From Nanobdellota archaeon (lineage in GTDB: Archaea > Nanobdellota > Nanobdellia > SCGC-AAA011-G17 > JAGVZF01): a stretch of DNA of 58,004 nucleotides. Shown here in pieces: positions 1-50,950 of this stretch. The notes beneath the pieces were generated by a model that searched no databases, was not told where the DNA came from, and saw only the letters and a program-made list of their open reading frames with translations. Position numbers and translations under genes: made by a program. The stretch spans positions 1-58,004 of the forward strand of contig JBBSWI010000003.1 in assembly GCA_038046405.1 (NCBI GenBank), in the 5' to 3' direction. Each line of letters opens with the position of its first letter. Positions within the stretch are counted from its first letter, which is position 1.

Positions 1-3000
1 TATAACCAAAATTATTGTTCTCTGTTGCTATTTTATTTTTGGTGTTAAAATCATAGATTACATATCCTGTATTGATTAATTGTTTGGTTTGTGATCCTTG
101 TGGCGTCAATACACCGTAAGGCTTGAATTTTAGTGTTCCAGAACTTACAGTTCCCTGATCTCTCACTGGTTTGTAACTTTTCTTAAGCTTTCCATTTTCG
201 TAATACTCATTATTCATGCGTATTGTTGATGAAGGGGATTCTATTACTGCAGCCTGTTTGATTTTTCCAAGACCATCGCTGAAACTTCTTGATTCTACTG
301 AAACAAGGTCGTTCAAAACGTTTGTTGTGCTAACATAATTTAAGTTCGGAAAACTATTGTCGCAATTAGGATTACTATCGAGGGCATAGCAGTAAGATAT
401 CTTTTGTGAAGGCAACAGGTCATAAGGTTTTATGACTTCTGTAAGTCTTCCTAGAGCATCATAATTGTAGCTTGTTGTTTTTTGGTTTATTTCGGTGATT
501 GCTTTAATATTCCCTGATTCATCATAAGTGCTCTTCTGGATAGGATTAGCGCTGCTTCCAAGGAATTCATTCCATATTTTCTCTGGATATTTATTCAGAT
601 AGTATGTTGTATGATATTCTGTGCCTATCGGATCTGTGTACTTCAACAAGTTTCCATGAGTATCATATTGATCAAAATTCACATATACATATTCATTATC
701 TGGGGGGTATATGTTTTCAGGGTCTATCTGCTGGTTTTTATTTTTGTCAAGCCAGGTTTTTTTGGCTGCAGGATAAACCTGATCATTATTGAATGTAAGC
801 CATATTGTATCTGTGTATGACAAAGGTTTTCTTGATGATGCCATACCATAAGAATCATAAGAGGTTTCCATTAAAGTGACGCTTCCTTCTTGGCCCTTCA
901 TATTCTTCTGCAAGAAAAGCCCAGGTTGATTTTGGAACGCAAAATTGTAATTAATCTCTCTTGCTTTTATAGGAATGCAACTATAATAAGAAACTGATCC
1001 GAGCATGCCTAATGCAGGTAAACTAGGCAATGTATAGGCATAACAATTTTTATACAAAAGGTATTCTATTACCTTCTTTGGCATACCATTGAAATTAGAG
1101 TAGCTATAAATGTTTCCCGGGTTGAATGAAGAGCCATAGCTGCTGTCCGGGATATCATTCCCAGCAGAGTAATAAGAAAATGCCTTTGAACTTATTATAT
1201 TCGGGACAGATGAACCTGCAGAGTATTCAACTTCTTGTTGCCTCATCAAGAAATTCCCTGAAGATGAATAAGCATAAGCATCTTTGCCGGTAAATGTATC
1301 TGGAACAACCCTTGCATAGGGTATGGGTATTCCTTTTTCTTCGTCTAAATGGTCCCAGTCAAGAAGTGGTACTTTGTATATATGCTTTGACCATGTATTA
1401 AACCAATCGCTGTAACTAACGTCATCCATTTTAAGATCGTTACCGTCAAGATTATATGAATAGAAAGTTTCTCTGAACAAAGTATAATCAGATTTGGAAA
1501 GTCTTGTCCTGATTGGCCGCCCATATTGATAATCAAATGACGTGATACAATTACCATTTCCACTGCACGCACTAGGATAATCTCTTGCAGTTATATAGTA
1601 ATCTACCATGGCTCCGGAGTCTGAACCTCCAGATTTCCCGATTATTCTTGTTGCTACACTTGTATATGCAACTTTATTTACATTAGATCGGCCAATATCA
1701 CTTTCTGAATAAGAATATCCAGCACTCACACTTCCTTTGCAGCCAATAAATTCAGATGGCCAGTATTGGGTTGCAGTTGTTTTTATTTTTCTGCAAAAAG
1801 GATCGCTTTCTATTACGCCCATTCCATATTGATAATATGTCGAGGTTATTTCTCCAGAGCCATCATCTGCTTCTATTCTAGATAGCCTTGTTCCAAGCCC
1901 ATTAAACGGATTAAAATTTGCCGGGCATGTACTCCAAAAAGGAACAGTGCCTATATTATCTTGTAAACATCTTAGCGTACCAATCTCTTGAACATCTTGT
2001 AGATAATAAACATTATCTGGTTGAAAAACATACTTTACGTTGCCGCCAGTAGGATAAGTTATTGTGCTAATCAAGAAATCTGTGGGGTCATTGGCACATA
2101 GGCCATATTTATTTTCGGCGCTGCATGGAATGTTCTTGTATTCAAATTTTGTCGGTGGCAATGAAGCAGATTCTGATATTCCATACTCCTTTATCTGCCT
2201 TAAGGTCAGTTTGCCATTAATTCTGCTGGAGTCTGTATAATAATCAAAGGCTACCTTCTTCAATAATTCTTGAGATGCTCCAGGCACCCCAGGATTCTGC
2301 TTTAATGATATGAAGTTCAGTCTCTTTAATCCGGGCCTTACAGAGTCATATATGCCTCTTGTTGGACTATAGTCTAAATTTACTTCATACAAAGGGGTTG
2401 TTATCTTTATTAACCTATAATCTACTATTGTTGAGGAGCTTGTTATTCTTGCTTGCTTGAACAAATGTGATCCTTCATTCCCATAGAAAACAGAGCTTGA
2501 GTAAAGATAGCTTGGAGAGTTTTCTATAGTAATTGTTGGACCGGTTTCATAATCAAATTTCACCCAGCTTCCTTTATCATTCTGGCTTGGTCCAGGAATC
2601 GAGTCAGAATCTACATAATCAGCGCTTTCTATGTAAGCAAGTGGCCATGAATAAGTATATGGCTTATTGGCGGGGCTTATAACTAAGTTTCTTATAGAGC
2701 ATGCATAATTTAAGAACTTAATTTGTTCATCAGTACTTGTGATAAGCTCCGGATCATTGTCACATATTGTTTGTGTTGTTCTTGTGTTTATGACAAGATC
2801 TTTGAATATGTACCTAGTCCCATCTTGCACAGTAACAACAAATTCGCTAATGCCGTTTACGCCACCAGCATCGTATGAATAAGATATTTTCCATGGTTTT
2901 ACATTGCCAAAAATAAATTGCCTATTGCTATTGAGCATCATTCCGCTGCCTTCACCATTAACACTAATGTAGAAATTATCCGGATTGCCTCTATTCACTC

Positions 3001-3601
3001 CCTTGATATAATCATATAATTTATTGTTGCTATTACTATTCTTGCATAATCCGTCAAAAGTATCCCAATAGCAGCCACTTATAGCTAGGCAGTCATTAGA
3101 TGGGTTAGGGCGGCAATCTACAGCACTAGGGCATATATTAACTCCGGGAATGTCTTTTTCTGAGTATTTTGATCCATATCCACCAGGCCTATCAAAAAGC
3201 CATCCTGTCTCTTCTACATTAACAGTATTGCCATTACAATCGCTGTCAATACGGTCATTTACATGGATATATTCGTCAGGGACCCCATTAACAGATCTTG
3301 TAATTGCACTTGATGCTCCAAGGCTAAATCCAAATCCGACATCAGTTGAATCTTTTCTTAATGTATTGTCAGAAGAACTGTAAATAATGTTTACGGGAAT
3401 GTCAAGGCCGCCTAACCCAGGAACATTAAACAATTGTATCGGCAATATCAGGTCTCCTCCAGATCCTGAAGACCCTTTGTCAACATTTGCAAAAGAAGCT
3501 GCCTGCGGATTTGCTGCATTCATATCTGCGTTAGCATAGTCTACATAGAATGAGGTAAGCAAAAAGACTAGAGCTAGTAATAGAAAAGCTGCTTTATTCA
3601 C
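1..3601 (-). CDS. Large secreted YD-repeat/RHS-family protein, partial (>=1200 aa, runs off the window start)
   Basis: Not in the ORF track because it has no stop in the window. GTG at 3601 follows an AGAGGGGG SD-like run. It reads MNKAAFLLLALVFLLTSFYVDYANA (signal peptide), then GGDLILPIQLFNVPGLGGLDIPVNIIYSS...VGFGFSLGASSAITRSVNGVPD (typical RHS N-terminus), LISTITYPTGGNVKY (~2080) and YDALGRLTEVIKPY (~463). The frame was spot-checked as identical at 3601, 2080, 463 and 61. Confidence 0.85.
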   Translation of the reverse strand, partial: MNKAAFLLLALVFLLTSFYVDYANADMNAANPQAASFANVDKGSSGSGGDLILPIQLFNVPGLGGLDIPVNIIYSSSDNTLRKDSTDVGFGFSLGASSAITRSVNGVPDEYIHVNDRIDSDCNGNTVNVEETGWLFDRPGGYGSKYSEKDIPGVNICPSAVDCRPNPSNDCLAISGCYWDTFDGLCKNSNSNNKLYDYIKGVNRGNPDNFYISVNGEGSGMMLNSNRQFIFGNVKPWKISYSYDAGGVNGISEFVVTVQDGTRYIFKDLVINTRTTQTICDNDPELITSTDEQIKFLNYACSIRNLVISPANKPYTYSWPLAYIESADYVDSDSIPGPSQNDKGSWVKFDYETGPTITIENSPSYLYSSSVFYGNEGSHLFKQARITSSSTIVDYRLIKITTPLYEVNLDYSPTRGIYDSVRPGLKRLNFISLKQNPGVPGASQELLKKVAFDYYTDSSRINGKLTLRQIKEYGISESASLPPTKFEYKNIPCSAENKYGLCANDPTDFLISTITYPTGGNVKYVFQPDNVYYLQDVQEIGTLRCLQDNIGTVPFWSTCPANFNPFNGLGTRLSRIEADDGSGEITSTYYQYGMGVIESDPFCRKIKTTATQYWPSEFIGCKGSVSAGYSYSESDIGRSNVNKVAYTSVATRIIGKSGGSDSGAMVDYYITARDYPSACSGNGNCITSFDYQYGRPIRTRLSKSDYTLFRETFYSYNLDGNDLKMDDVSYSDWFNTWSKHIYKVPLLDWDHLDEEKGIPIPYARVVPDTFTGKDAYAYSSSGNFLMRQQEVEYSAGSSVPNIISSKAFSYYSAGNDIPDSSYGSSFNPGNIYSYSNFNGMPKKVIEYLLYKNCYAYTLPSLPALGMLGSVSYYSCIPIKAREINYNFAFQNQPGLFLQKNMKGQEGSVTLMETSYDSYGMASSRKPLSYTDTIWLTFNNDQVYPAAKKTWLDKNKNQQIDPENIYPPDNEYVYVNFDQYDTHGNLLKYTDPIGTEYHTTYYLNKYPEKIWNEFLGSSANPIQKSTYDESGNIKAITEINQKTTSYNYDALGRLTEVIKPYDLLPSQKISYCYALDSNPNCDNSFPNLNYVSTTNVLNDLVSVESRSFSDGLGKIKQAAVIESPSSTIRMNNEYYENGKLKKSYKPVRDQGTVSSGTLKFKPYGVLTPQGSQTKQLINTGYVIYDFNTKNKIATENNNFGY

Positions 3602-6143: not shown

Positions 6144-6743
6144 ATGATTATTGTTGATGTTGAAACAACGGGGCTTGATCCAAAAAAACATTCTATTGTA
6201 AGTATAGGCGCCATTGATTTCTTTAATCCTGAAAATCAATTTTATGAAGAGTGCAGAATTTTTGATAATGCCGAGATAACACAAGAGGCGCTTGCAATAA
6301 ACGGATTCACAGAAGAACAAATAAAGAATCCAAATAAACGGCCTCAGAGAGAGGTTATAAAACAATTTTTAATATGGATAGTAAAGTTCAATTATAGGAC
6401 TATTGCTGGGCAAAATCCCTCCTTTGACAGAGATTTTTTAAAATCTGCTGCAGAAAGATTTAAATTATACTGGCCTTTGCACCATAGAACTGTTGATCTT
6501 CATTCATTATGTTATGCAAATTACCTCAAAAGAGGTTTATTGCCTCCAATCAAAGAAGGCATGAGCAATTTAAGCCCTTCTCAAATATACATTTATGTTG
6601 GATTGCCTGAAGAAAAAATTCCGCATAACGGACTTCTCGGCGCAAAAATGGAAGCGGAAGCCTTCAGCAGATTAGTTTATGGTAAAAATTTACTGCAGGA
6701 ATTCAAACAGTATGAAATTCCAAAATATTTAAATCAAAATTAG
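6144..6743 (+). CDS. DEDDh 3'-5' exonuclease (DnaQ/oligoribonuclease-like)
   Basis: IVDVETTG (ExoI), GQNPSFDRDF (ExoII), PHNGLLGA (ExoIII His; the last Asp appears replaced). Confidence 0.85.
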   Translation: MIIVDVETTGLDPKKHSIVSIGAIDFFNPENQFYEECRIFDNAEITQEALAINGFTEEQIKNPNKRPQREVIKQFLIWIVKFNYRTIAGQNPSFDRDFLKSAAERFKLYWPLHHRTVDLHSLCYANYLKRGLLPPIKEGMSNLSPSQIYIYVGLPEEKIPHNGLLGAKMEAEAFSRLVYGKNLLQEFKQYEIPKYLNQN

Positions 6744-7192: not shown

Positions 7193-7547
7193 TGTAGGTA
7201 AGTGCCTAACTTACGGAACCTTGAAGGCGTAGCGTTTTTCGCGAATGCTCTTCTGAAATGGGTTCTGAGGAAAGTCCATCCACCGCAAAAAGGTTGCTTA
7301 TCGCAAGGTAAGTTTCAGAAATGGAAGGCAACTATTCAGAAACGATACAGCCTTTTGCTGCAAAAAATGTGGCTCGCGAAGTTTCTCGTGAGAGAAATGA
7401 GATAACCAGCTGAATAGGCAAAAGGAATTGGTGAAACGATAGACCCAACCGGTGCAAGTCTCCAAGAGACGCTCAGTAAAATGTTAGGACAGTTTATTCC
7501 TTTGCATAAAGGAAAACTGACAGAAGGTGGCTTATAGCTTACCTACA
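7193..7547 (+). ncRNA. rnpB: RNase P RNA (archaeal)
   Basis: Conserved CR-I GAGGAAAGTCC (~7267), CAGAAAC and TGAAACG elements, GTGCAAG, and CR-V ACAGAAGGTGGCTTAT (~7520). Terminal P1 helix TGTAGGTAAG (7193-7202) pairs with CTTACCTACA (7538-7547). TTTATAAA-like promoter just upstream; GC above background. Confidence 0.92.
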
Positions 7548-9628
7548 CTTTCATTTCTGCTCTTAAGATAGCTTCTTAAGTTTTTATGATGTTTTAATTC
7601 TGAAATCAGATGCTCACAGTATTCCCTTGAATCCCCAAACCTCTGGAAGAATGGCCATTCTTCCTTTAATCGAGAAAAAAAGAATTTCCTGTCATTCAAT
7701 AATCTTTGATCTTCTAGATATACTTCTTCAATGCGGGAATTTAATCTTTCTATAAATGGATCGTTGTTCGGAACTTTTATTATAGTGTATTCTTGGCTCT
7801 TATGCAATCCTTTCAGTATAGATGGATTTTTTTCAAGGTCTATTTCAAAAGGCCTGTTTATCAGTATTAAATAATAATTGTCTGGATTCAAAGACAATCC
7901 ATTTTTAATCCCTAAAGCATAGCTTAGTAATTGGTATTTATAGCCGAGCTTTGCATACGGAAATTTTCTTGACCTCTTTGCGTCCAAAACGACAATATCC
8001 GCCTCAGAGCCATTTTGCAATAGAAAAGAAGCATCAAAATGCCCAAGAACATTTATTCCATCATTAGTGTAAAGAACAGGCCTTTCACAGTATTCTTGCC
8101 TATTTGTTACTGGAAATCCTATTAGCTGCAATAATTCATTGTGTTTATAATTGATATCTGGTTGGGAGAACATAATTTTGTGCATTAATGTGCCGAACTC
8201 CGCAAACTCGTTCGGCTTTACAGTTATAGGAAACAAATATTTATACATGCCAATAAACCTTCCTATGACGCTGTCATTATAGAAACTGCTAGACCTAATG
8301 TCCAGTTGAGAAGGCACTTCAAATCTGGGAGTCAAAACAATCTGCTTGCCTTTTATTTCATTGCGCCATGAATAATGCCTTCTTGATGAATCCACAACAT
8401 CAAAGTCTTTCCCCGACATTAATTCGACCAATATTGTTTCTATGCCCTTAATGCCGAAATGCATATCTGCTGCCTGCTTTTTTAACAGCTCAACAGATTT
8501 TGCTTCTTTTTCAGAAAAAAAGTTGTTGTTGCAGCAGTCTTCTAGAGTATTCGCTTTTTTCTGGAAGGGGCATAGCATATAAGAATTGAACGGACATATC
8601 AATGATTCCAAATTAATGCCTTGCTCTTCCTTGATTGGCAAAGTTTTTGGAGTGATTATTGTCTTGTTTTTGTGGGCGTGCCTTGAAACCAAGAATCCAT
8701 TTAGTATGTTTATTGCGCTGATATCTGATTCTCCTTTGTCGCTTCTTTCTGTGTTGCGCATTGGACCTTCCATGCCGCCAATTATATGACAAGGAATTTT
8801 ATTTTCGGTGGAAGCCCTCCCAATAATGGGGAGAGCATAGCCTGTTTTCATTGAAAAGAGATTAATTTCAGTTAAACCAAGCAGTTTTATTATATTAGAA
8901 AATGCATTGATCATAATTAAGTTATTAAGCAGGACTTCATAGCCAATCCTTTCCTTTATCGCAGCAATATTCTCGCCCGGATTAAATTCTTGCGGGCTCT
9001 TTTTTAATTGGTATAGCCTTCTTTCGCTGCTGAAACATTCCTCATAGAACTCGTAATTTGCCGTGCTTCCCGAGCTTTCTAATGATTTCTCCAAAGAGCC
9101 GAATCCTTTTTTATTATGGTCAAGAAGCCAGTCATTAACACCGTAAACTATTTCTTTAGACGCATGGACTATTTTCCCATCTTTGAAAGTGAACGGAAAT
9201 ACTACAGGAGAGACTGGGACAACCAAAACATTTCTATATGCTTCCGGATTCTCCAAATACTTTTGAAGCATTTTACTTGTTAAAGCAAAGGATTCTGTAA
9301 ATGGATCAGTTGCAATCTTTTTAGGGATCCCAGACCCTTGATTTGTAAGATTTATGGAAACGCTTGTTGAGAATATAACAGTTTCAAAACATTCTTTTAG
9401 TTCTGGCAGTATTTCTTTCAAATCTGAATTGTATAGAAAAAATTTCTCGAAATTCCCATAATGCCTTTTGTCTCTGGTTTTCTCTTGCGCTTTTTCAAAC
9501 ATCTCTTCCAGAACTTTTGCCTTATACCTTCCGCGGTTTGTGAATTTAATATCAGTCAAAAAAGGCCTTGATACCTGGATTATATCTGCGGGATCATTGA
9601 TTAATTGTGTTGTATGAATATATGTCAT
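7532..9628 (-). CDS. Large protein with an unknown N-terminal region and a C-terminal Cas4-like PD-(D/E)xK nuclease domain
   Basis: C-terminal GTLMHK...YCE...VLGHFDA...VVLDAKRS...YKYQLLSYA matches the RecB/Cas4-family motifs (GxxxH, E, GxxD, D/ExK, QxxxY). Cys cluster ICPFNSYMLCPF...DCC in the middle. Confidence 0.75.
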   Translation of the reverse strand: MTYIHTTQLINDPADIIQVSRPFLTDIKFTNRGRYKAKVLEEMFEKAQEKTRDKRHYGNFEKFFLYNSDLKEILPELKECFETVIFSTSVSINLTNQGSGIPKKIATDPFTESFALTSKMLQKYLENPEAYRNVLVVPVSPVVFPFTFKDGKIVHASKEIVYGVNDWLLDHNKKGFGSLEKSLESSGSTANYEFYEECFSSERRLYQLKKSPQEFNPGENIAAIKERIGYEVLLNNLIMINAFSNIIKLLGLTEINLFSMKTGYALPIIGRASTENKIPCHIIGGMEGPMRNTERSDKGESDISAINILNGFLVSRHAHKNKTIITPKTLPIKEEQGINLESLICPFNSYMLCPFQKKANTLEDCCNNNFFSEKEAKSVELLKKQAADMHFGIKGIETILVELMSGKDFDVVDSSRRHYSWRNEIKGKQIVLTPRFEVPSQLDIRSSSFYNDSVIGRFIGMYKYLFPITVKPNEFAEFGTLMHKIMFSQPDINYKHNELLQLIGFPVTNRQEYCERPVLYTNDGINVLGHFDASFLLQNGSEADIVVLDAKRSRKFPYAKLGYKYQLLSYALGIKNGLSLNPDNYYLILINRPFEIDLEKNPSILKGLHKSQEYTIIKVPNNDPFIERLNSRIEEVYLEDQRLLNDRKFFFSRLKEEWPFFQRFGDSREYCEHLISELKHHKNLRSYLKSRNESVGKL

Positions 9629-9678
9629 ATTTTTAACATATTAAAAAGGCTTTTAAAAATATCTACAATAACAGAATA

Positions 9679-12123
9679 ATGGCTTTTTTAGTAGATGTGA
9701 AATTAAGAGGAAACAAACAATTATTGCAAGTAAGGTCTAAAGGGCGCTCATATCTAATAGAAGAGAATTTTGAGCATATAATTCCGACATGGAACATACA
9801 ACATGATGTGCTTCTCGAAAATCTTAGCGCAGTTGCAAGACCCGCTAAAAATAGCAGGAAGATTTTTGAAGTTCTTGATGGGAATTTAATAAGACTAAAT
9901 ACAAGAATCGAGCTATTCCCGTATGCAAGAACTGAAAAGGACCTAGACAAGTTCTCTGAAGATGATTTTGAATGGATAAAGAAACATGGAAAATTTGTGG
10001 CACATGCTATCGGAAATCCTAGTATGAAATATTGTCTGCCACATGATTTTATAGTTGGCAGCAAAAATGACCCTAGAAATAATGTGCTTAGGATGAGGCG
10101 ATGGCTTCTTAACATGCCTTTCCCTATATATCCAGAAAATGGCGCTAGATCAAGGCTTGAAGAACTGTTAAGAGAGAAGAAAGCTTCAATAGACCTAGAA
10201 GTCAGAGGCTGGAAGAAGAAAAACGACGAGATATTCCTCTGCCCTTTCATAACATTTGACGATAATTTTGGAAATTACTTGCTTGTCAGAGATGATATTG
10301 GAGAAGATAAAATTATTGTAGACAGTGATTTTGGGCAAGTCAAGTTTAACATCATAAACAATGTCAGGGATTTTGGAGAGGAGTTAAACAAATTATTTTA
10401 TGCATATGATCCTCTGTTCACTTTCATACATAATGCTAATTACGACCTGTCTAAATTAAAAAACCTTGAGAAAAATTTCAGGCCGGGATTAAGCCTTGAA
10501 GAAAGTGGCAAAATACCCATAATGACCGGCGGTTCAAGCACATACATAAAAAGATACAGCATCAATAGGGGCTATATAATAGACACTTATCCATTTTCCT
10601 TAAACTGGTTGTGGTTGCCAAACAACAAGTTGTTTACAGCTTATGATTACATGTTTGGGAAGAATCACGAAAAGGAAATTGAAAGTTATGACGAGCTTGA
10701 GGAATGGGCTGAAAAGTCCAAAACTAACCCCGAGTATACAAGAAAATGTTCTGTTTATGCGATTAAAGATGCTATACTTGGATTCAAGCTCGGAGAAAGA
10801 AGCTTAGAGGATATTTTAATTATGAGCTATTTGTTCAGGGAAAATCCAGATGTCATTGCAACAACTGCAAAAGATGAACTAGCATTAAAAGTGCATGAAA
10901 TGATACAGTTCAAGAGAACTAACACTTACGGCTATAGAACCAGTCAGGCAGAAGAAAAGCTCGATGAATTCTCCGTCAATGAAGAAAAAGTAAGACTCCT
11001 AGAATTAAATGAAAGTAAAAGAGGTTTGTTTAATGCTTCATTGGTATATTTTACGCCCTTTATTGAAGGCCTTGTTCAGATAATAAGCTCTGACCCGATT
11101 GCAATGGCCACGTATAGAAAATTCCAAAGTGCAAACAGCATCGACAAGGTTATCCTTGCAGAAGGGCTTGAAGCCTACTTGAGGAAGGCGTTATTCGACC
11201 TTAAGGTAAGACTTCCTGTAGAAGAGGGGGAGAAATTCAAAAGTAGATTGTTTGATGCGCCAGATACTAGGGAAGATTACACTTATGGAAAGATTTATGG
11301 AATAAAAAACGGCCCTTACCATTATTCAAGAAATATAACTACATTAAATAATAATGTTTTCGAAAGAATAAATGACCTACAAAGATTCTTGCAGGGGAAA
11401 GAAATAATAAATTTTTCGGATAAATTTGTTTTATTAAATGGTGATGTTGATGTTTCCGGATTAAATAGCCTTGCTATAAAATTAGGTTATGGAAATTCTT
11501 TGTCTTTGGAAAGAGGAAGGTTCTCTATAAACTTAGAAGGGCAGTTTATCAGTCAAGGCCTAGACTTAAGCTCGACAAGGGGAGATGCAACGTTTCTTCA
11601 ATACGAAATAAAAAGTGAAATTCTCACCAAGATATTAAAAAACAATTCCAAGACTGAAGTTCTTGACTACTTGGCAAGAAGGATAGCAGATTTTGAAAAT
11701 GAGCCACGAGAAAAATTTGCTTATTTGAGAGAGAGTGTATTAAGAGATTTTTTGGATTACAGCGATAGGGCGCACACAAGAGAAAAAGTACAAAACCTGA
11801 TTTATTACGGGAAAAGAGCGGGAGAAATTTTCAATGGTGGTTTCATAAAGGGAATAAAAACATTGGTAGTTGTTCCAGAGTTCTATAATAGAAGACTAGA
11901 AGTGGACTATGAAAGGTATAAATGCAGGTTTTTTGGTCCTTTGAATGAGGGAATTAGAAGTTTCTCCGAAGGAACTATAGGGAATGTGTTGTATTCTATT
12001 TTTTGTTTTGAACGTGGCGCTTTAAATTACAAAAAGGTTGCTTGTCTTTCCAGCATCGTAGAAGGAAAGAATATAGAAAAAGCAAGGGAAATCTTGCTTA
12101 CGGAACAAACAGCTTTATTTTAG
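9679..12123 (+). CDS. Divergent family-B DNA polymerase homolog: intact 3'-5' exonuclease, degenerate polymerase site, C-terminal PIP-like box
   Basis: ExoI SIDLEV, ExoII HNANYDL, ExoIII YAIKDA. Motif A region KRGLFNASLVYFTPF lacks DxxSLYPS; motif C region EIINFSDKFV lacks YxDTD. Thumb ISQGLDLSSTRGD...EILTKILK is recognisable; the protein ends EQTALF. Confidence 0.8.
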   Translation: MAFLVDVKLRGNKQLLQVRSKGRSYLIEENFEHIIPTWNIQHDVLLENLSAVARPAKNSRKIFEVLDGNLIRLNTRIELFPYARTEKDLDKFSEDDFEWIKKHGKFVAHAIGNPSMKYCLPHDFIVGSKNDPRNNVLRMRRWLLNMPFPIYPENGARSRLEELLREKKASIDLEVRGWKKKNDEIFLCPFITFDDNFGNYLLVRDDIGEDKIIVDSDFGQVKFNIINNVRDFGEELNKLFYAYDPLFTFIHNANYDLSKLKNLEKNFRPGLSLEESGKIPIMTGGSSTYIKRYSINRGYIIDTYPFSLNWLWLPNNKLFTAYDYMFGKNHEKEIESYDELEEWAEKSKTNPEYTRKCSVYAIKDAILGFKLGERSLEDILIMSYLFRENPDVIATTAKDELALKVHEMIQFKRTNTYGYRTSQAEEKLDEFSVNEEKVRLLELNESKRGLFNASLVYFTPFIEGLVQIISSDPIAMATYRKFQSANSIDKVILAEGLEAYLRKALFDLKVRLPVEEGEKFKSRLFDAPDTREDYTYGKIYGIKNGPYHYSRNITTLNNNVFERINDLQRFLQGKEIINFSDKFVLLNGDVDVSGLNSLAIKLGYGNSLSLERGRFSINLEGQFISQGLDLSSTRGDATFLQYEIKSEILTKILKNNSKTEVLDYLARRIADFENEPREKFAYLRESVLRDFLDYSDRAHTREKVQNLIYYGKRAGEIFNGGFIKGIKTLVVVPEFYNRRLEVDYERYKCRFFGPLNEGIRSFSEGTIGNVLYSIFCFERGALNYKKVACLSSIVEGKNIEKAREILLTEQTALF

Positions 12124-15620: not shown

Positions 15621-15830
15621 ATGGAAGCTTTAACTAAAACTAGGAAGATTGGAGGATCTTTAGTAGTTACTATACCTAAGGAAATTGTTGAACAAGAGGG
15701 GCTTGTGGAAAACCAAGCAGTCAGGATAGATGTTAAGAAGATGAAAAAAAGTGGCTTCGGGATGTTTAAAAGCTTAGGCACTTTTACAAAAAAAGATAAA
15801 TTTGTAGGGCAGTTAGAGAATAATGAATAA
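15621..15830 (+). CDS. vapB: AbrB/MazE-type antitoxin (VapB)
   Basis: TRKIGGSLVVTIPKEIV swapped hairpin; overlaps the PIN gene by 8 nt. Confidence 0.88.
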   Translation: MEALTKTRKIGGSLVVTIPKEIVEQEGLVENQAVRIDVKKMKKSGFGMFKSLGTFTKKDKFVGQLENNE

Positions 15831-16212
15831 ATTTGTTATAGATGCTTACGCTTGGATTGAATATTTTAAGGGTACTGTTCCTGGCGAAAAGGTTAAAAAT
15901 ATTGTAGAAGATTCTAACAACTTAATTTATACTAATGTGATCACAATTGCGGAATTATCAAGCTTCTTTGAAAGAAAAGACTCTAGTTTTAAAGAGGCGA
16001 AGAAATTACTTATTTCATTATCTTCTCCCATTCCAATAAATACGGAGTTTGCAGACGAAGCAGGAAAATTACATGCAGAATTAAAGAAAAAAATCAGGCA
16101 TATCGGACTAGCAGACATATTAGTCCTATTAACTGCCAAAAAACTAAATGCTAAAGTCGTTACTGGTGATGAAGACTTCAGGGATTTAAAAGAAACCTAT
16201 ATGATTAAATAG
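15823..16212 (+). CDS. vapC: PIN-domain toxin (VapC)
   Basis: VIDAYAWIEY, ITIAEL, GLADILV, VVTGDEDF acidic tetrad. Confidence 0.92.
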   Translation: MNKFVIDAYAWIEYFKGTVPGEKVKNIVEDSNNLIYTNVITIAELSSFFERKDSSFKEAKKLLISLSSPIPINTEFADEAGKLHAELKKKIRHIGLADILVLLTAKKLNAKVVTGDEDFRDLKETYMIK

Positions 16213-16536: not shown

Positions 16537-17604
16537 TTAATATTTCTTTATGATTTTTTCCAAATGCCTCAAAAACTCTCCAGTATCTACAAAATAATTT
16601 GGATATGCTTTTTCCAGATCATTGATAGTATCTACCCCCACAAGAACAACATCATATTGTTTTTTTCCATTGTTTCTTTTCTCAGCATTAGAATAATCTT
16701 CAATTGCTTTTTTTTCTTGATTTTTTGTATAGGCAGTGATATTCAATTTTTCTCCTAGAATATCTAATTCCAATAAAAAAAATTGCACTTTTTGAGTAGG
16801 TTTAAATTCTTTTTTGAAAACATTAAATGCGGTAGCCCAACCTTTCATGATTTTTATAACATTTAGCTCTTTTTCTTTTATCTTAATTTGCTGATATAAT
16901 TCTTTTTCATCTTCGGGAGTGTTTGGAACACAAGGACAATCTTCCAATTTGGCAAAGGCGGAACTAACTAACTTAAAGAAGTCCATCCACTCTTTTTGTC
17001 CTTCACTAGATTTTATAGCTTGTCTAGTAAAAAAATCCACTGTTTCAATGGCAGTAGCCCAAAGATGTTGTAATTTTGACCTTATTTGAACTTCTATGAG
17101 TAATCCATTATATTCTTTTTTTTCTTTGTCACTATTATATTTATAAATTAAATGAATACCTCTATATCCATCATCTTTCGGATGAGTAATATAATCTTTT
17201 TCTCCAAGCTTTTTATGTTTTAAATCCCCCCTTATATAATAGTCCCTATATAATTTTCTCGCCAAAGAAACATTGGATAAAACCGCTCTACAACCCCCAA
17301 TATCTTGCATCTGCGAGAGCCTCATAGTAGGAGTTCGGCCATAATATTTCCTTTTAAGTTTTTTAACAATTGCAGGAACACGTTTAAGTCTTTGTGCAGT
17401 TAAAGAATCTTTATCTATAAGTTTAGATTTATTTTTTAATCTTATTTTAAAAATATGCATTGGGTAGCTATGAATCGCTCTCCAATTGTCTAATATATCA
17501 AGAGCTTTATCAAAATCATTTTCAGAGCTTTCATTATTAATTAAAATATCTCCAGATTTGTTAATTATACCTTTAGAAAACCCCTTTGGTTTTATCCATG
17601 TCAT
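16537..17604 (-). CDS. RelA/SpoT-domain protein (small alarmone synthetase-like nucleotidyltransferase)
   Basis: AQRLKR, MQDIGGCR, KDYITHPKDDGYRGIHLI, IEVQIRSKLQHLWATAIE. Confidence 0.9.
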   Translation of the reverse strand: MTWIKPKGFSKGIINKSGDILINNESSENDFDKALDILDNWRAIHSYPMHIFKIRLKNKSKLIDKDSLTAQRLKRVPAIVKKLKRKYYGRTPTMRLSQMQDIGGCRAVLSNVSLARKLYRDYYIRGDLKHKKLGEKDYITHPKDDGYRGIHLIYKYNSDKEKKEYNGLLIEVQIRSKLQHLWATAIETVDFFTRQAIKSSEGQKEWMDFFKLVSSAFAKLEDCPCVPNTPEDEKELYQQIKIKEKELNVIKIMKGWATAFNVFKKEFKPTQKVQFFLLELDILGEKLNITAYTKNQEKKAIEDYSNAEKRNNGKKQYDVVLVGVDTINDLEKAYPNYFVDTGEFLRHLEKIIKKY

Positions 17605-42434: not shown

Positions 42435-43728
42435 AGGCGAGAAGTCCCCTTTCGTAAGATAAGGGATGAAAGCCGTTATAGTTGCCATTGTATTCCTATC
42501 AAGTACAGAAAACTTTATAATGTTCTAAAAAGCTATGCTGACAGGCAAGGAATTCACTAATGACAACAGCATATAAATTTAGATTGTATCCAAAGAAAGA
42601 ACAGCAAGACAAGTTAGATTTATCTTTAGAAATTTGCAGACAAACTTATAATCATTTGCTATCAGGGTTTGATGAAAGATTTACAAAAAATGAGTTACAA
42701 AATTATATTCTTGATTTGAAAGTTGTAAATCCTCAAATGGATAATGTTCATTCTAAAGTTTTACAGATGGAAAATCAAAGATTGTTTGGAAATCTATCAT
42801 CGCTTTCACAATTAAAAAAGAAAGGCAGAAAAGTTGGAAGATTAAGATTCAAAGGAAAAAACTGGTTCAAAACTTTCACCTATAACCAATCTGGTTTCAA
42901 ACTAACACACATAAAAAATAAGAAAGGAATATTATTTCTTTCAAAGATTGGAGATATACCTATAAAATTACATAGACAGGTGGATGGAAAGATTAAAAGC
43001 ATTACGGTTAAAAAATCTCTTGGAAAATGGTATTGTTCTATTGTAACTGATGCTGTCATCAAAAGAGAATGTGGAACTGGAGAAATAGGGATTGATGTCG
43101 GAATTGAGAATTATATTTATGACAGCAATGGAAATGCTTATGAAAATCCAAAACATTTTGACAATTATCATCAAGAACTAAAGATTGCCCAACAATCTTT
43201 ATCAAAGAAAGTTAAAGGTTCAAATTCAAGAAAGAAAGCAAGATTGAAAGTTGCTAAAATTCACGAGAAAATGGCAAATGCAAGAAATGATTTTATTCAC
43301 AAGCTTTCTACAAAGCTTATCAAAGAGAATAAGTTTATTGCCATTGAAAAATTGAACATAAAAAATCTAATCGGAATTTCTTATAATGCTAAAAATATTG
43401 CTGATGCAAGTTGGGGAAAACTCTCTATGTATCTGCACTACAAAGCTGAAAACGCTGGTTGTGCAGTTATAGATGTAGACCCTGCTTACACAACAAGGAA
43501 TTGTAGTTTCTGTGGATACAGAAATAACAAATTAGAAATTTCTCAAAGAAAGTTTGTTTGTAAAAAATGCAACACAGAGCTTCCAAGAGATTACAATTCT
43601 GCGCTAAACATATTCGTTTGTGGCAAGGAACTTGCCATGATGGAGAAATCTTCCAATACTTATCATTCTGATAAGCAAGAAGTATCTATGAAGTCAGAAG
43701 CCCCACCTGTAAGGGTGGGGTAGTTCAC
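42435..43728 (+). mobile_element. IS200/IS605-family element, tnpB-only (IS1341-like)
   Basis: Left end AGGCGAGAAGTCCCCT...AAGGGA hairpin after CCAT; right end GAAGCCCCACCTGTAAGGGTGGGGTAGTTCAC hairpin ending in TCAC; no tnpA. The left boundary is approximate. Confidence 0.8.
42560..43723 (+). CDS. tnpB: TnpB RNA-guided endonuclease
   Basis: AYKFRLYP; RuvC IGIDVG, IAIEKLN, RDYNSALNI; zinc finger CSFC...CKKC. Confidence 0.96.
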   Translation: MTTAYKFRLYPKKEQQDKLDLSLEICRQTYNHLLSGFDERFTKNELQNYILDLKVVNPQMDNVHSKVLQMENQRLFGNLSSLSQLKKKGRKVGRLRFKGKNWFKTFTYNQSGFKLTHIKNKKGILFLSKIGDIPIKLHRQVDGKIKSITVKKSLGKWYCSIVTDAVIKRECGTGEIGIDVGIENYIYDSNGNAYENPKHFDNYHQELKIAQQSLSKKVKGSNSRKKARLKVAKIHEKMANARNDFIHKLSTKLIKENKFIAIEKLNIKNLIGISYNAKNIADASWGKLSMYLHYKAENAGCAVIDVDPAYTTRNCSFCGYRNNKLEISQRKFVCKKCNTELPRDYNSALNIFVCGKELAMMEKSSNTYHSDKQEVSMKSEAPPVRVG

Positions 43729-48154: not shown

Positions 48155-50950
48155 ATGGACATAAAAGAAGGATTGACATTTGACGATGTTTTATTAGTCC
48201 CGAAGAAAACTCCTGTAATGTCGAGAAAAGAAGTAAGCGTTCAAAGCATCTTAACAAAAAGAATCCAGTTGAATGTACCTTTAGTATCTGCAAATATGGA
48301 CACTGTGACTGAGAGTGCTATGGCTATAGCGATGGCTAGACAAGGAGGTATAGGAATAATACATAGATTCCTGCCAATCGAAAAACAAGTTGAAGAAGTC
48401 CAGAGAGTAAAAAGATCAGAATCATTCATAATAGAAAAGCCTGTAACTATAGATCAGAATAAGACATTGAAGGAAGCTAAAATCTTAATGACTGTTAATG
48501 ATATTGGGGGGATCTTAGTAATTGATGACAATAATGATTTAAGTGGAATATTGACTAATAGAGACATATTATTTCAGGATAATCCAAGAACAAAGATATC
48601 TGAATTGATGACTCCCAGAAATGAGATGATAACTGCTCCTTATGGAATAAGTATAGACGAAGCAAAGAAGATTCTTTATGATCATAGAATAGAAAAACTA
48701 CCTTTATTAGACAAAGATGGAAAGATTCATGGATTAATAACTACTAAAGACATTAGTAAGAAAGAGAAATATCCAAATGCATCAAAAGATCTCAAAGGAC
48801 GATTATTAGTTGGTGGGGCAGTTGGTGTGAAAGAGGATTATATTGAAAGAGCAACTGAGATTTATAGAGCTGGTTGTGATGTCTTAGTTATTGACATAGC
48901 TCATGGTCATAGTGATATTGCAATAAAATCAATAAAAGAGATTCGCAAAAATCTTGGGTCTGTTGATCTAATCGCTGGAAATGTAGCTACAGCAGAAGGA
49001 TGTAAAGAATTAATTAAAGCTGGTGTAGACTGTGTTAAAATTGGAGTTGGCCCGGGAGCCGTTTGTCTGGAAGGAGACACACCAATATTAATGAATGACT
49101 ATACTGTTAAAAATATAAGGGATATAAAACCTGGTGAAAAAGTAATAACCCACAAAGGGAGATCAAAAAGAGTAACTAAAACATATAAAAGACATTATAA
49201 AGGCGAAATTCTAAAATTAAATGTAGGTGGAAGTCCTGGAACAATAAAAATGACTCCAGAACACCCCATTCTAAGCATTAATTTTAAAATTGATCCTAAA
49301 AAAATGAAAAAGAATGGATCAAAATATTATTTTTATAAAAAGAAATATACAAAAAATCTTAATTGGATTGAGGCTGGATCGTTAAAATCTGGAGATGTAG
49401 TTGTAATACCTAAAAATAAACCTGTTTTGAATAAAATTTCTTTTGATTTAGCTAAATTGATGCCAGAATATAATCACGACGATAAATATATCTGGTCTAA
49501 TAAAATTGGATTCAATCCAAACATAGAATCTCATGGGAATATTGCAAAAAGATTTAACACAACTCATAGAATTATTGAAAATATAGTGCATGGCAATAAA
49601 TCTCTGAATATGGAATTAAACGGGCAAGTTAATCAATATTTAGATATTTCTAATTATACCCGAGAAATTCAATCACTTAAAATTAATAGAAATATAGGGC
49701 TAAATAAAGATTTTATGAGAATAATTGGATATTATTTAGCAGAAGGATTTATCGGTGGTTATGAGAAGAATAAACATTTATGTTTTGCATTCTCAAGCAA
49801 AGAATTGGAATATCATGAAGACATAAAAAGATTAATTAATAATATATTTGAATATAAAAACTCAAAAATTCTTTTTAAAAAAGATAGGAATTCAGCTACT
49901 GTTCAAATTTCTAATAATATAATAGCAAGATTTTTCAAATCTTTAATACCTGGAGTTGCTCATACCAAAAAAATACCCTTGTTTATAATTAACCAAGATA
50001 ATGAACTATTAAGAGAGTTGCTAATAGGAGCTATTAGGGGTGATGGTTCAATAAAGGAACCTAGACGAGTTAGTTATTTTACAACTTCCAGAAATCTAGC
50101 TTTCCAAATAGCTGAAATATTTGTTAGATTTGGTTATATGCCAAGCATAAACGTTGGGAAGAGTCATAATCCTAATTGGAATGATAAATGGAGAGTATCA
50201 ATATCTGGTGCCCAATATGAAAAATTTGCATTAGAATTCCCAGAATTTAATATTCCAAGAAATGAAATCAAAGGAAAACAACAATTATGGGAAGATAATG
50301 ATTATATCTATCTAAGTATTGACAATATAAAAAGTGTAGATGATGAATTAGATGTGTATAATATAGAAGTAGAAGAAGATAATTCCTATATTGCAAATAG
50401 AATCGCTGTACATAATTGTTCAACAAGAATTGTAACTGGTGTGGGAGTTCCTCAATTAACTGCAATAATGAATTGCGCAAAAATTGCAAATAAGGAGAAT
50501 ATTCCAATAATGGCTGATGGAGGCATAAAAAATTCTGGAGATATATCTAAAGCAATAGCCGCTGGAGCTTCTACAGTTATGCTTGGAAGTTTATTGGCTG
50601 GAACAGAAGAAAGCCCTGGAGCAATAATAATGAGGCATGGAAGACGTTTTAAGATATATAGGGGAATGGCATCTTTTGGTGCAAATCTCGGAAGGAAACA
50701 AAGAATAAACAACAATAATGATATTGATACTGATTTATTAGACATGACTCCTGAAGGCATAGAAAGCTTAGTTGAATATAAAGGATATGCCTCTGAGGTA
50801 ATAACTCAGTTAGTTAATGGATTAAAGTCTGGAGTTTCATATTGTGGATCAAAAGATATCAAGGGGATGCAAAAAAATGCAGAGTTCATCAAGATGTCAA
50901 TAGCTGGATTAAAAGAAAGTCATCCTCATGATGTAGAAGTTTTAAAGTGA
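48155..50950 (+). CDS. guaB: IMP dehydrogenase/GMP reductase family enzyme with a CBS pair, intein-containing (about 480 aa after splicing)
   Basis: [37 protein letters not shown]|C STR, ADGGI, YRGMAS, PEG, ESHPH. Confidence 0.9.
49064..50416 (+). mobile_element. Intein (451 aa) with LAGLIDADG homing endonuclease
   Basis: Starts [10 protein letters not shown]; block B MTPEHP; endonuclease helices IIGYYLAEG and LIGAIRGDG; ends [21 protein letters not shown], followed by Cys. Confidence 0.96.

Follow-up and report, generated by a model that had tools for sequence, protein, structure and literature searches.

Family-B DNA polymerases (PolB) with degenerate catalytic motifs have already been described in archaea. 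In the PolB2 group, as presented in the available text of the papers that treat it, the ExoI motif is not conserved, ExoIII is missing, and one motif C Asp together with a D(K/R) motif is found (PMC7544198, PMC4104785), the gene partners of this group being arCOG07300 and an inactivated RadA (PMC4104785). The PolB of casposons is active and belongs to the PolB_CDTDS group, and six new archaeal PolB groups have been reported, including B7 and B9 in Woesearchaeota, which are not described as polymerase-dead in the available text (PMC7544198). More generally, the inactivated family-B polymerases found described in the accessible parts of the literature (PolB2, Pol epsilon C, Pol alpha and Pol zeta) have lost the exonuclease, alone or together with the polymerase (PMC7544198, PMC4104785, PMC2669801, PMC12926913), and in bacterial polymerases the exonuclease sites are generally less conserved than the polymerase sites, according to the available text of PMC12926913. 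Regarding the nucleases, solo-Cas4 is reported from most DPANN genomes, and the word "polymerase" is absent from the main text of the corresponding paper (PMC5704561). Here, a gene pair is described from a stretch of 58,004 nucleotides of a Nanobdellota archaeon (contig JBBSWI010000003.1, assembly GCA_038046405.1; the whole stretch is called the window). One gene encodes P0001, an 814-amino-acid (aa) PolB homologue, also called dead PolB below, which keeps its proofreading site and has lost the polymerase catalytic residues; the other encodes P0002, a 698-aa partner that ends in a Cas4-type nuclease domain. A previous reading of the DNA made from the sequence alone (the sequence-only reading) had noticed two large genes diverging from a 50-bp spacer, and the list of open reading frames (ORFs) agrees with it (Table 1).

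P0001 is a family-B DNA polymerase homologue in which the whole fold is kept. As single sequences, P0001 and P0002 had no match in Pfam, NCBIfam, PADLOC or the PDB. An HMMER search with P0001 recovered 112 cluster representatives at E ≤ 1e-3, 15 of them at E ≤ 1e-30 (clusters at 50% identity), and 84 of the 112 form alignment A1, to which all counts out of 84 refer. Taken singly, 21 chosen A1 proteins also remained below the Pfam threshold. In the PDB, the A1 profile matched Pyrococcus/Thermococcus PolB with an E-value of 6.7e-42, profile positions 166-749 (584 positions) being aligned with residues 124-731 of the chain, and weaker matches were obtained with Pol delta (1e-17) and E. coli Pol II (1e-13). 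The AlphaFold model of P0001 built from A1 (pLDDT 94.8, pTM 0.94) matched the same Thermococcales polymerases (Foldseek E 2e-23 across ~850 alignment columns), so the structural comparison that the sequence-only reading had suggested came out in favour of its assignment. The top TM-scores of this model (0.58/0.62-0.64) corresponded to P. abyssi PolB in editing mode and to Tgo PolB on deaminated-base DNA, the latter match being given little weight. Furthermore, the P0001 family aligned with the genome's own PolB over 536 columns (hhalign probability 98.3%). It should be mentioned that NCBI assigns one close relative of P0001 to a Candidatus Woesearchaeota archaeon.

The best-conserved part of the P0001 family is the proofreading site. 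The three PolB proofreading motifs that had been recognised in P0001 are kept throughout, since the five catalytic residues, D172 and E174 of ExoI, D256 of ExoII, and Y360 and D364 of ExoIII, are each found in 84/84 representatives, accompanied in ExoII by N252 (77/84) and Y/F255 (81/84). The family presents the complete set of DEDDy motifs (DxE, Nx2-3(F/Y)D and Yx3D). Judged by its motifs, it does not present those of an active family-B polymerase (Dx2SLYPS, DTD and Kx3NSxYG). In a local alignment to Pfu PolB, the column of the motif A Asp corresponds to T459, where the family has T (39), F (10), A (9) or S (8) and never D, and the motif C YIDTDG of Pfu aligns to I-I-N578-F-S580-D(-K), with N in 78/84 and D in 1/84 at the column of the first Asp and S in 45/84 at position 580. 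The hhalign alignment is offset by two residues at motif C and sets D581 opposite the first Asp, but D581 is present in only 20/84, and a conserved motif C Asp is given by neither of the two alignments. Moreover, acidic residues stay below half of the family in every column from 440 to 620, and of motif B only the basic residue 490 is left (K in 45 and R in 30, K/R 75/84), its N, Y and G being gone. These motif C positions come from local alignments; when the intact PolB was placed on the family model with hmmalign, its palm motifs were wrongly positioned, and that alignment was not relied on. Both palm motifs are lost, as had been read from the sequence, and their structural supports remain: the P0001 model still shows a strand at motif A (449-458) and a hairpin at motif C (576-579/584-587). 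The fingers, on the other hand, had been described as shortened and this does not hold: the model shows a pair of long helices (487-511 and 552-571) separated by an inserted stretch of ~40 residues, and what is lost is motif B. Considering the trend in bacterial polymerases mentioned above, the reverse pattern of the P0001 family is unusual.

The gene pair is a conserved module across distant genomes. Its neighbourhood was compared at 43 loci, which are the window, L010, L011 and 40 loci around the best profile matches in a sample of 401 genomes of the phylum. An ORF of the partner family lies next to the dead PolB, or one small ORF away, in 36 of the 43 loci; 34 of these pairs are divergent, with gaps mostly below 100 bp, and two are co-directional. 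Seven loci have no partner, one of them being cut at a contig start. Within the same genus, G001 carries the pair, cut by contig ends. In the genus g3 (G006 and G003) a partner of 797 or 787 aa and a dead PolB of 883 aa are arranged divergently, 53 and 52 bp apart, with an identity to the window proteins of 23% for the PolB homologue and of 22-30% over local segments for the partner. All-against-all clustering of the 43 loci gave no family besides the dead PolB and the partner in more than 6 of them.

At the genome level, the partner profile found 38 of the 401 genomes and strong dead-PolB matches (E ≤ 1.9e-41) were found in 44. The latter include 36 of the 38 partner genomes, and G129 adds a weaker dead-PolB match, located on the same contig beside the partner. 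The dead PolB is present in 37/38 partner genomes, and in the exception (G339) only the C-terminal half of the partner is found, near a contig start. One of the genomes counted, G364, is flagged as unpublished; without it there are 43 dead-PolB genomes and 37 partner genomes. The partner is essentially never found without the dead PolB, although the reverse is not true. With these counts, the conservation of the divergent pair, which the sequence-only reading had left as a check across DPANN, is supported across distant genomes of the phylum. On a rough FastTree tree from hmmalign match columns (62 rows, one long outgroup), the paired state requires three changes, one of which corresponds to the locus cut by the contig. 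In this tree P0001 clusters with the protein of G094, a member of a different taxonomic family (44% identity), rather than with that of G006, which belongs to its own family; P0002 is likewise 33% identical to the G094 partner versus ~20% to the others. This common affinity of both genes indicates that the pair moves and diverges together. No fusion of dead PolB and partner was found among proteins of 1646-4700 aa, which is weak evidence because a fusion of ~1500 aa falls outside that range.

The partner family was built by iterative profile searches of the fetched loci, and 29 full-length members form alignment A2. The residues G311, R445, S447, G479, H483, E515, D532, D549, K551, Q566 and Y570 are invariant in 29/29 partners, and the last seven make up the H/E...D...DxK...QxxxY signature of RecB/Cas4-type nucleases. 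PF12705 matches 7/29 partners (best E 1.4e-5), PF01930 matches none, and by sequence the partner profile had no match in the PDB. Concerning the structure, the P0002 model (pLDDT 86.6, pTM 0.86) has Cas4 as the best match of its C-terminal domain, and ACE1 structures are also among the matches. The D, DxK and QxxxY motifs and the top structural match sustain the RecB/Cas4-type PD-(D/E)xK domain that had been proposed for the end of this protein. In Cas4, the Fe-S cysteines follow the pattern Cx(n)CxxCx(5-8)C and bracket the nuclease domain. Four cysteines arranged as C...CxxC...C are present in 27/29 partners, and P0007, the closest relative of P0002, has none of them.

Regarding the N-terminal part, members of the uracil-DNA glycosylase (UDG) superfamily present a water-activating loop of the GQDPY type and a motif 2 of the HPS type. 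The partners show, after a beta strand, a G-x-D-P-[FY]-S loop (D108 in 25/29, P109 in 18/29, F/Y110 in 24/29), which resembles the GQDPY loop of family-1 UDGs. In the model, a UDG-like fold is the best match of the N-terminal alpha/beta domain of P0002, and it may be taken as a lead to the nature of this domain. In the ESM Atlas, partner residues 1-450 only gave Rossmann folds of the glycosyltransferase-like type with TM-scores of 0.25-0.32 on a poor Atlas model, which were not used, and a sub-threshold match between P0002 and a toxin subunit family was set aside as chance. The partner is split in at least 6 genomes into an N-terminal domain (~315-390 aa) and a middle/Cas4 nuclease part (~355-440 aa), encoded by separate adjacent genes (loci L044, L073, L074, L078 and L079; also G126, G344, G402, G404, G123 and G364). 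The break falls at the same profile position (~337/355), which points to a natural domain boundary in the partner.

The C-terminus of P0001 is EQTALF. The canonical PCNA-interacting peptide (PIP) box is Qxx[LIMV]xx[FY][FY], and its ligands dock in the PCNA pocket below the interdomain connector loop. The tail Q810-T-A-L-F-COOH does not match this consensus, as it has no distal aromatic pair, and it looks more like the pentapeptide that binds the bacterial clamp. A QxxLF motif no more than 3 residues from the C-terminus was found in 26/84 representatives and in 6/42 genome loci, versus 0/210 other ORFs (≥200 aa) of the same loci and 0/41 partner ORFs. When residues 755-814 of P0001 were co-folded with the genome's own PCNA, the three scores were 0.71, 0.69 and 0.71, whereas three controls all gave 0.00; the mark used is attained by 58/80 solved complexes and by 2/110 mismatched pairs. 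Contact agreement among the runs was at least 96%, with a partner pLDDT of at least 64, and the modelled contacts place tail residues 807-814 against PCNA residues 42-46, 125, 225, 241 and 243-249, that is, in the peptide pocket. The co-fold that had been suggested as a check is, as a model, in favour of binding of PCNA through the P0001 tail in this genome. The PCNA-type tail noticed in the sequence thus stands for P0001, but its presence in only a minority of representatives and loci means that PCNA tethering cannot define the family.

The dead PolB coexists with separate replicases, whose presence was another of the checks suggested. An intact 820-aa PolB with DFQSLYPS, KTIMNATYG, YSDTDS and a C-terminal QSNLKSFF is encoded on contig C8, the DP2 subunit of PolD on contig C18, and a 249-aa PCNA on contig C29. 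The intact PolB gene (L104:1866 onward, +) has a 230-aa PF12705 nuclease gene (L104:1126-1818, +) 47 bp upstream on the same strand. This small nuclease was found in 45/61 related genomes, with best matches of 46-77% identity, and in 8/8 genomes of the same order for which both coordinates are listed (G000, G002, G007, G013, G016, G032, G042 and G053) its gene immediately precedes that of the intact PolB. It is distant from the nuclease domain of the partner (hhalign probability 70%, E 4e-5). A Cas4-family nuclease is also found beside the intact PolB, so the pairing of a PolB fold with this family recurs in the lineage, and this recurrence favours a role in replication or repair.

Regarding these data, it is considered probable that the pair forms a unit of two nucleases linked to replication or repair, which DPANN (Nanoarchaeota-type) archaea keep as a conserved module on the chromosome and which would trim DNA with two polarities. 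P0001 would derive from a duplicate of an archaeal family-B replicase in which the polymerase carboxylates and motif B were lost and the fold and the DEDDy site were kept. With such a combination P0001 should act only as an exonuclease, presumably a structure-specific 3'-5' enzyme that would grip a primer-template or a DNA end as a polymerase does in editing mode, and the short C-terminal peptide would dock it on PCNA in this genome. P0002 has three parts: an alpha/beta domain of putative UDG-like fold, a small middle region and a nuclease of the Cas4 family, whose members typically cut single strands as 5'-3' exonucleases or as endonucleases. Both proteins, perhaps in contact with each other, could work jointly at DNA ends, gaps or flaps associated with replication or repair, where both strand polarities would be trimmed. 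The sequence-only reading had proposed a PCNA-tethered two-nuclease module for end processing, repair or defence; the conserved pair and its two nuclease domains are in agreement with it, while tethering is not family-wide, the defence role finds no support in the gene context, and the primer-template sensing that it ascribed to the dead fold is hypothetical.

Several observations weigh against this proposal. The loss of motifs is strong evidence, not proof, of polymerase inactivity, as PolB2 was predicted to be inactive from its motifs and yet Dpo2 polymerises and extends mismatches, according to the available text of PMC8764526 and PMC7544198. The partner is missing from 8/44 genomes with strong dead-PolB matches, and the partner profile had no match in the 10 partner-less genomes that were searched whole. 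There is also a divergent dead-PolB branch (L083-L102), for which 20 loci were fetched and 19 gave a match to the profile, with ORFs of 870-1020 aa: motifs A, B and C are missing in all 19, many members end in ...LF, and the partner lies beside the dead PolB in 0/19. These partner-less genomes and this branch indicate that the exonuclease can work alone. Moreover, P0002 retains only one of the four Fe-S cysteines that 27/29 relatives have, the QxxLF tail is missing from most of the P0001 family, and the co-fold score may reflect likeness to solved PIP-PCNA complexes, including the PolB-PCNA complex 3a2f. Concerning the UDG-like domain, all contigs of this genome were searched and gave no match to PF03167 (UDG) or to NurA (PF09376). 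A PF03167 UDG occurs in 211/401 sampled genomes, 28/38 of those bearing the partner versus 183/363 of the others, and the module as a replacement of UDG was rejected because so many partner-bearing genomes have the Pfam UDG.

Anti-mobile-element defence, also suggested in the sequence-only reading, would imply that both nucleases degrade invading linear or replicating DNA in the manner of ACE1-pAgo or RecBCD-like systems. Cas4-family nucleases do act in defence, ACE1 is among the structural matches, the distribution is patchy (38/401 genomes), the tree suggests transfer between taxonomic families, and a gene matching the defence candidate PDC-S33 (E 3e-118) lies 4.4 kb from the pair. However, this gene is not conserved beside the pair at other loci, and P0001 and P0002 lack PADLOC matches, as do 96 of the 110 neighbours scanned at 23 paired loci and the window, the remaining ones matching mostly generic domains. 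The neighbours of the pair vary by locus and those identified are housekeeping genes, namely TopA, EF-1alpha and oligopeptidase F, and aspartokinase and NAC in the window. Partner-less copies in the taxonomic family f40 adjoin topoisomerase VI A/B, a DnaG-like Toprim protein, a RIO kinase and a KH-domain protein, and another partner-less group adjoins RNase J; some members of the L083-L102 branch have such surroundings. Neither the phage collection nor one pattern scan of IMG/VR, in which 11 stretches matched, yielded a relative of P0001 or P0002, and a PCNA-binding-type tail fits chromosome replication or repair better. The genomic context does not speak for defence, which is rather unlikely. 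As for replication-coupled excision, a PCNA-riding and editing-only P0001 would sense an abnormal primer-template or lesion, the DNA would pass to P0002, which would inspect or remove a base with its UDG fold (G-x-D-P-[FY]-S loop) and cut the strand with its Cas4 domain, and the replicases would refill the excised patch. This seems quite improbable; if it held, no earlier PolB lineage would have been selected to give up synthesis and keep proofreading.

Nucleotide salvage has also been considered, since two nucleases of opposite polarities, as expected from their families, could reduce scavenged DNA to mononucleotides in a biosynthesis-poor DPANN cell with a small genome (0.93 Mb), and a DEDDh exonuclease gene (6144-6743, +) is located nearby in the window. 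This gene, which had been noticed as a third nuclease, is real and encodes a stand-alone RNase_T/DnaQ-like protein of 199 aa (RNase_T E 4e-13), but it clustered with no gene in at least three of the other 42 loci and is not part of the module. On the other hand, a tail that would dock on PCNA and a DNA-binding scaffold kept complete, as in a polymerase, suggest that P0001 acts on particular structures in the DNA of the cell itself, which makes salvage very improbable. It is slightly less likely still that P0001 has remained an active polymerase, relying on non-canonical residues such as D581 and working as a specialised translesion or extender enzyme like PolB2/Dpo2. The precedent of Dpo2, the basic residue retained at position 490 and the alignment that sets D581 opposite the first Asp of DTD would agree with it. 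Nevertheless, D581 is poorly conserved, the motif A Asp column never contains D, motif B has kept neither its N nor its Y and G, no acidic column common to half of the family exists in the region 440-620, and translesion PolBs lose the exonuclease, which is here the best-conserved part. The replication- or repair-associated two-nuclease unit is therefore the reading preferred.

The features of the pair are listed in Table 1. The spacer between both genes may function as a promoter region, as suggested by the TATA-like runs read in it.

Table 1. Features of the dead PolB-partner locus (positions in the window)
Feature	Position	Strand	Basis
PolB homologue gene P0001 (814 aa)	9679..12123	+	Exonuclease site intact by motif, polymerase catalytic residues gone
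P0001 DEDDy 3'-5' exonuclease domain, ~aa 131-400	10069..10878	+	Aligns to Pfu PolB exonuclease domain; D172/E174, N252/Y255/D256, Y360/D364
P0001 degenerate palm and fingers, ~aa 401-620	10879..11538	+	Remnants of motif A VYFTPF (456-461), motif B K490, motif C IINFSDK (576-582) and KxY S609..G613-R-F
P0001 thumb and C-terminal region, ~aa 621-808	11539..12102	+	Profile alignment to Pfu PolB residue 731; full-length Foldseek match
P0001 tail E-Q-T-A-L-F, aa 809-814, clamp-binding-type short peptide	12103..12120	+	Sequence and PCNA co-fold
Divergent intergenic spacer, 50 bp, A/T-rich	9629..9678	.	TATA-like runs toward both genes (sequence read)
Partner gene P0002 (698 aa)	7532..9628	-	ORF call, family alignment, structure model
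P0002 N-terminal alpha/beta domain, ~aa 1-335	8624..9628	-	Motif G/A-x-D108-P-F-x-x-S
P0002 C-terminal Cas4-type PD-(D/E)xK nuclease domain, aa 439-682	7583..8314	-	Motifs and model

The source genome is assembled in 40 contigs with a completeness rating of 96.6%, and the gene content around the pair is of the housekeeping type (thermosome, SRP54/FtsY, PheRS, Sua5, aspartokinase and NAC). An archaeal RNase P RNA gene at 7198-7542 (+; 141 bits, E 1e-39) is convergent with the P0002 gene and overlaps its 3' end by 11 nt. The PDC-S33 match mentioned above is a full-length match of a RelA/SpoT-domain protein encoded at 16537-17604 (-), and next to it there is a PIN-domain gene (15823-16212, +). 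Other features of the window are an IMP dehydrogenase gene (48155-50950, +) into which an intein carrying a LAGLIDADG homing endonuclease is inserted, a gene of the TnpB/IS605 OrfB type (42560-43723, +) with OrfB_IS605 and Cas12f1-like TNB domains, and an open frame of at least 1200 aa at 2-3601 (-), which extends past the window start.

Concerning the relevance of these results, the retention pattern opposite to that of the inactivated polymerases mentioned above has been selected here across at least 112 clusters at 50% identity and in 44/401 genomes, tied to a large Cas4-family nuclease, and two unannotated protein families receive a testable assignment. If enzymology agrees, it would show that a polymerase scaffold can be turned into a structure-specific nuclease; the solo-Cas4-type nucleases, widespread in archaea with small genomes, might then acquire a function in the cell, and DPANN, whose DNA repair is poorly understood, would have a new PCNA client.

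Compared with known systems, the two kinds of protein, a PolB homologue and a Cas4-family nuclease, are known, but this variant seems not to have been described before, nor does the pairing: neither a polymerase-dead, exonuclease-intact PolB group nor a PolB/Cas4 pair was found described in the available text of the literature, whose supplementary tables could list such cases. The closest solved relative of P0001, both by profile and by structure, is the PolB3-type replicase of Pyrococcus/Thermococcus (3a2f, 2jgu, 4fly), with which it shares the N-terminal domain, the DEDDy exonuclease, the palm, the fingers and the thumb. Both have a C-terminal clamp-binding peptide, although that of P0001 is QxxLF and not Qxx[LIM]xx[FY][FY]. 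Unlike the PolB3-type enzymes, the P0001 family has no motif A or C carboxylates and no N, Y and G in motif B, and it presents a finger insertion and a nuclease partner gene.

PolB2/Dpo2 is similar in being a paralogue with degenerate polymerase motifs that exists beside the replicases, with conserved partner genes and a presumed role in repair. P0001 reverses its pattern, since the exonuclease is intact, no palm Asp is left and the partner is a Cas4-like nuclease; with ExoI and ExoIII invariant, no conserved motif C Asp and a Cas4-like neighbour, PolB2 identity was ruled out. The inactive C-terminal PolB module of Pol epsilon is also a non-polymerising scaffold with the PolB fold, from which P0001 differs by its conserved exonuclease. 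A casposon resembles the module in that a PolB-family gene adjoins a CRISPR-related nuclease family. It was ruled out because P0001 has no catalytic residues and no Cas1 was found among the window ORFs, terminal repeats not having been searched for. The sequence-only reading was hence right that neither PolB2 nor a casposon fits. No member of the Cas1 or Cas2 families was found among the 43 window ORFs scanned, CRISPR arrays not having been searched for, and across the 43 loci the only conserved neighbour of the partner is the PolB homologue and not the cas1/cas2 genes to which the Cas4 of CRISPR adaptation is linked. Finally, the partner shares the catalytic D, DxK and QxxxY with the nuclease domains of Cas4/solo-Cas4, AddB and AdnAB, and the cysteines in 27/29 members; in comparison with Cas4, it is three to four times larger, carries ~440 extra N-terminal residues and is linked to a PolB homologue.

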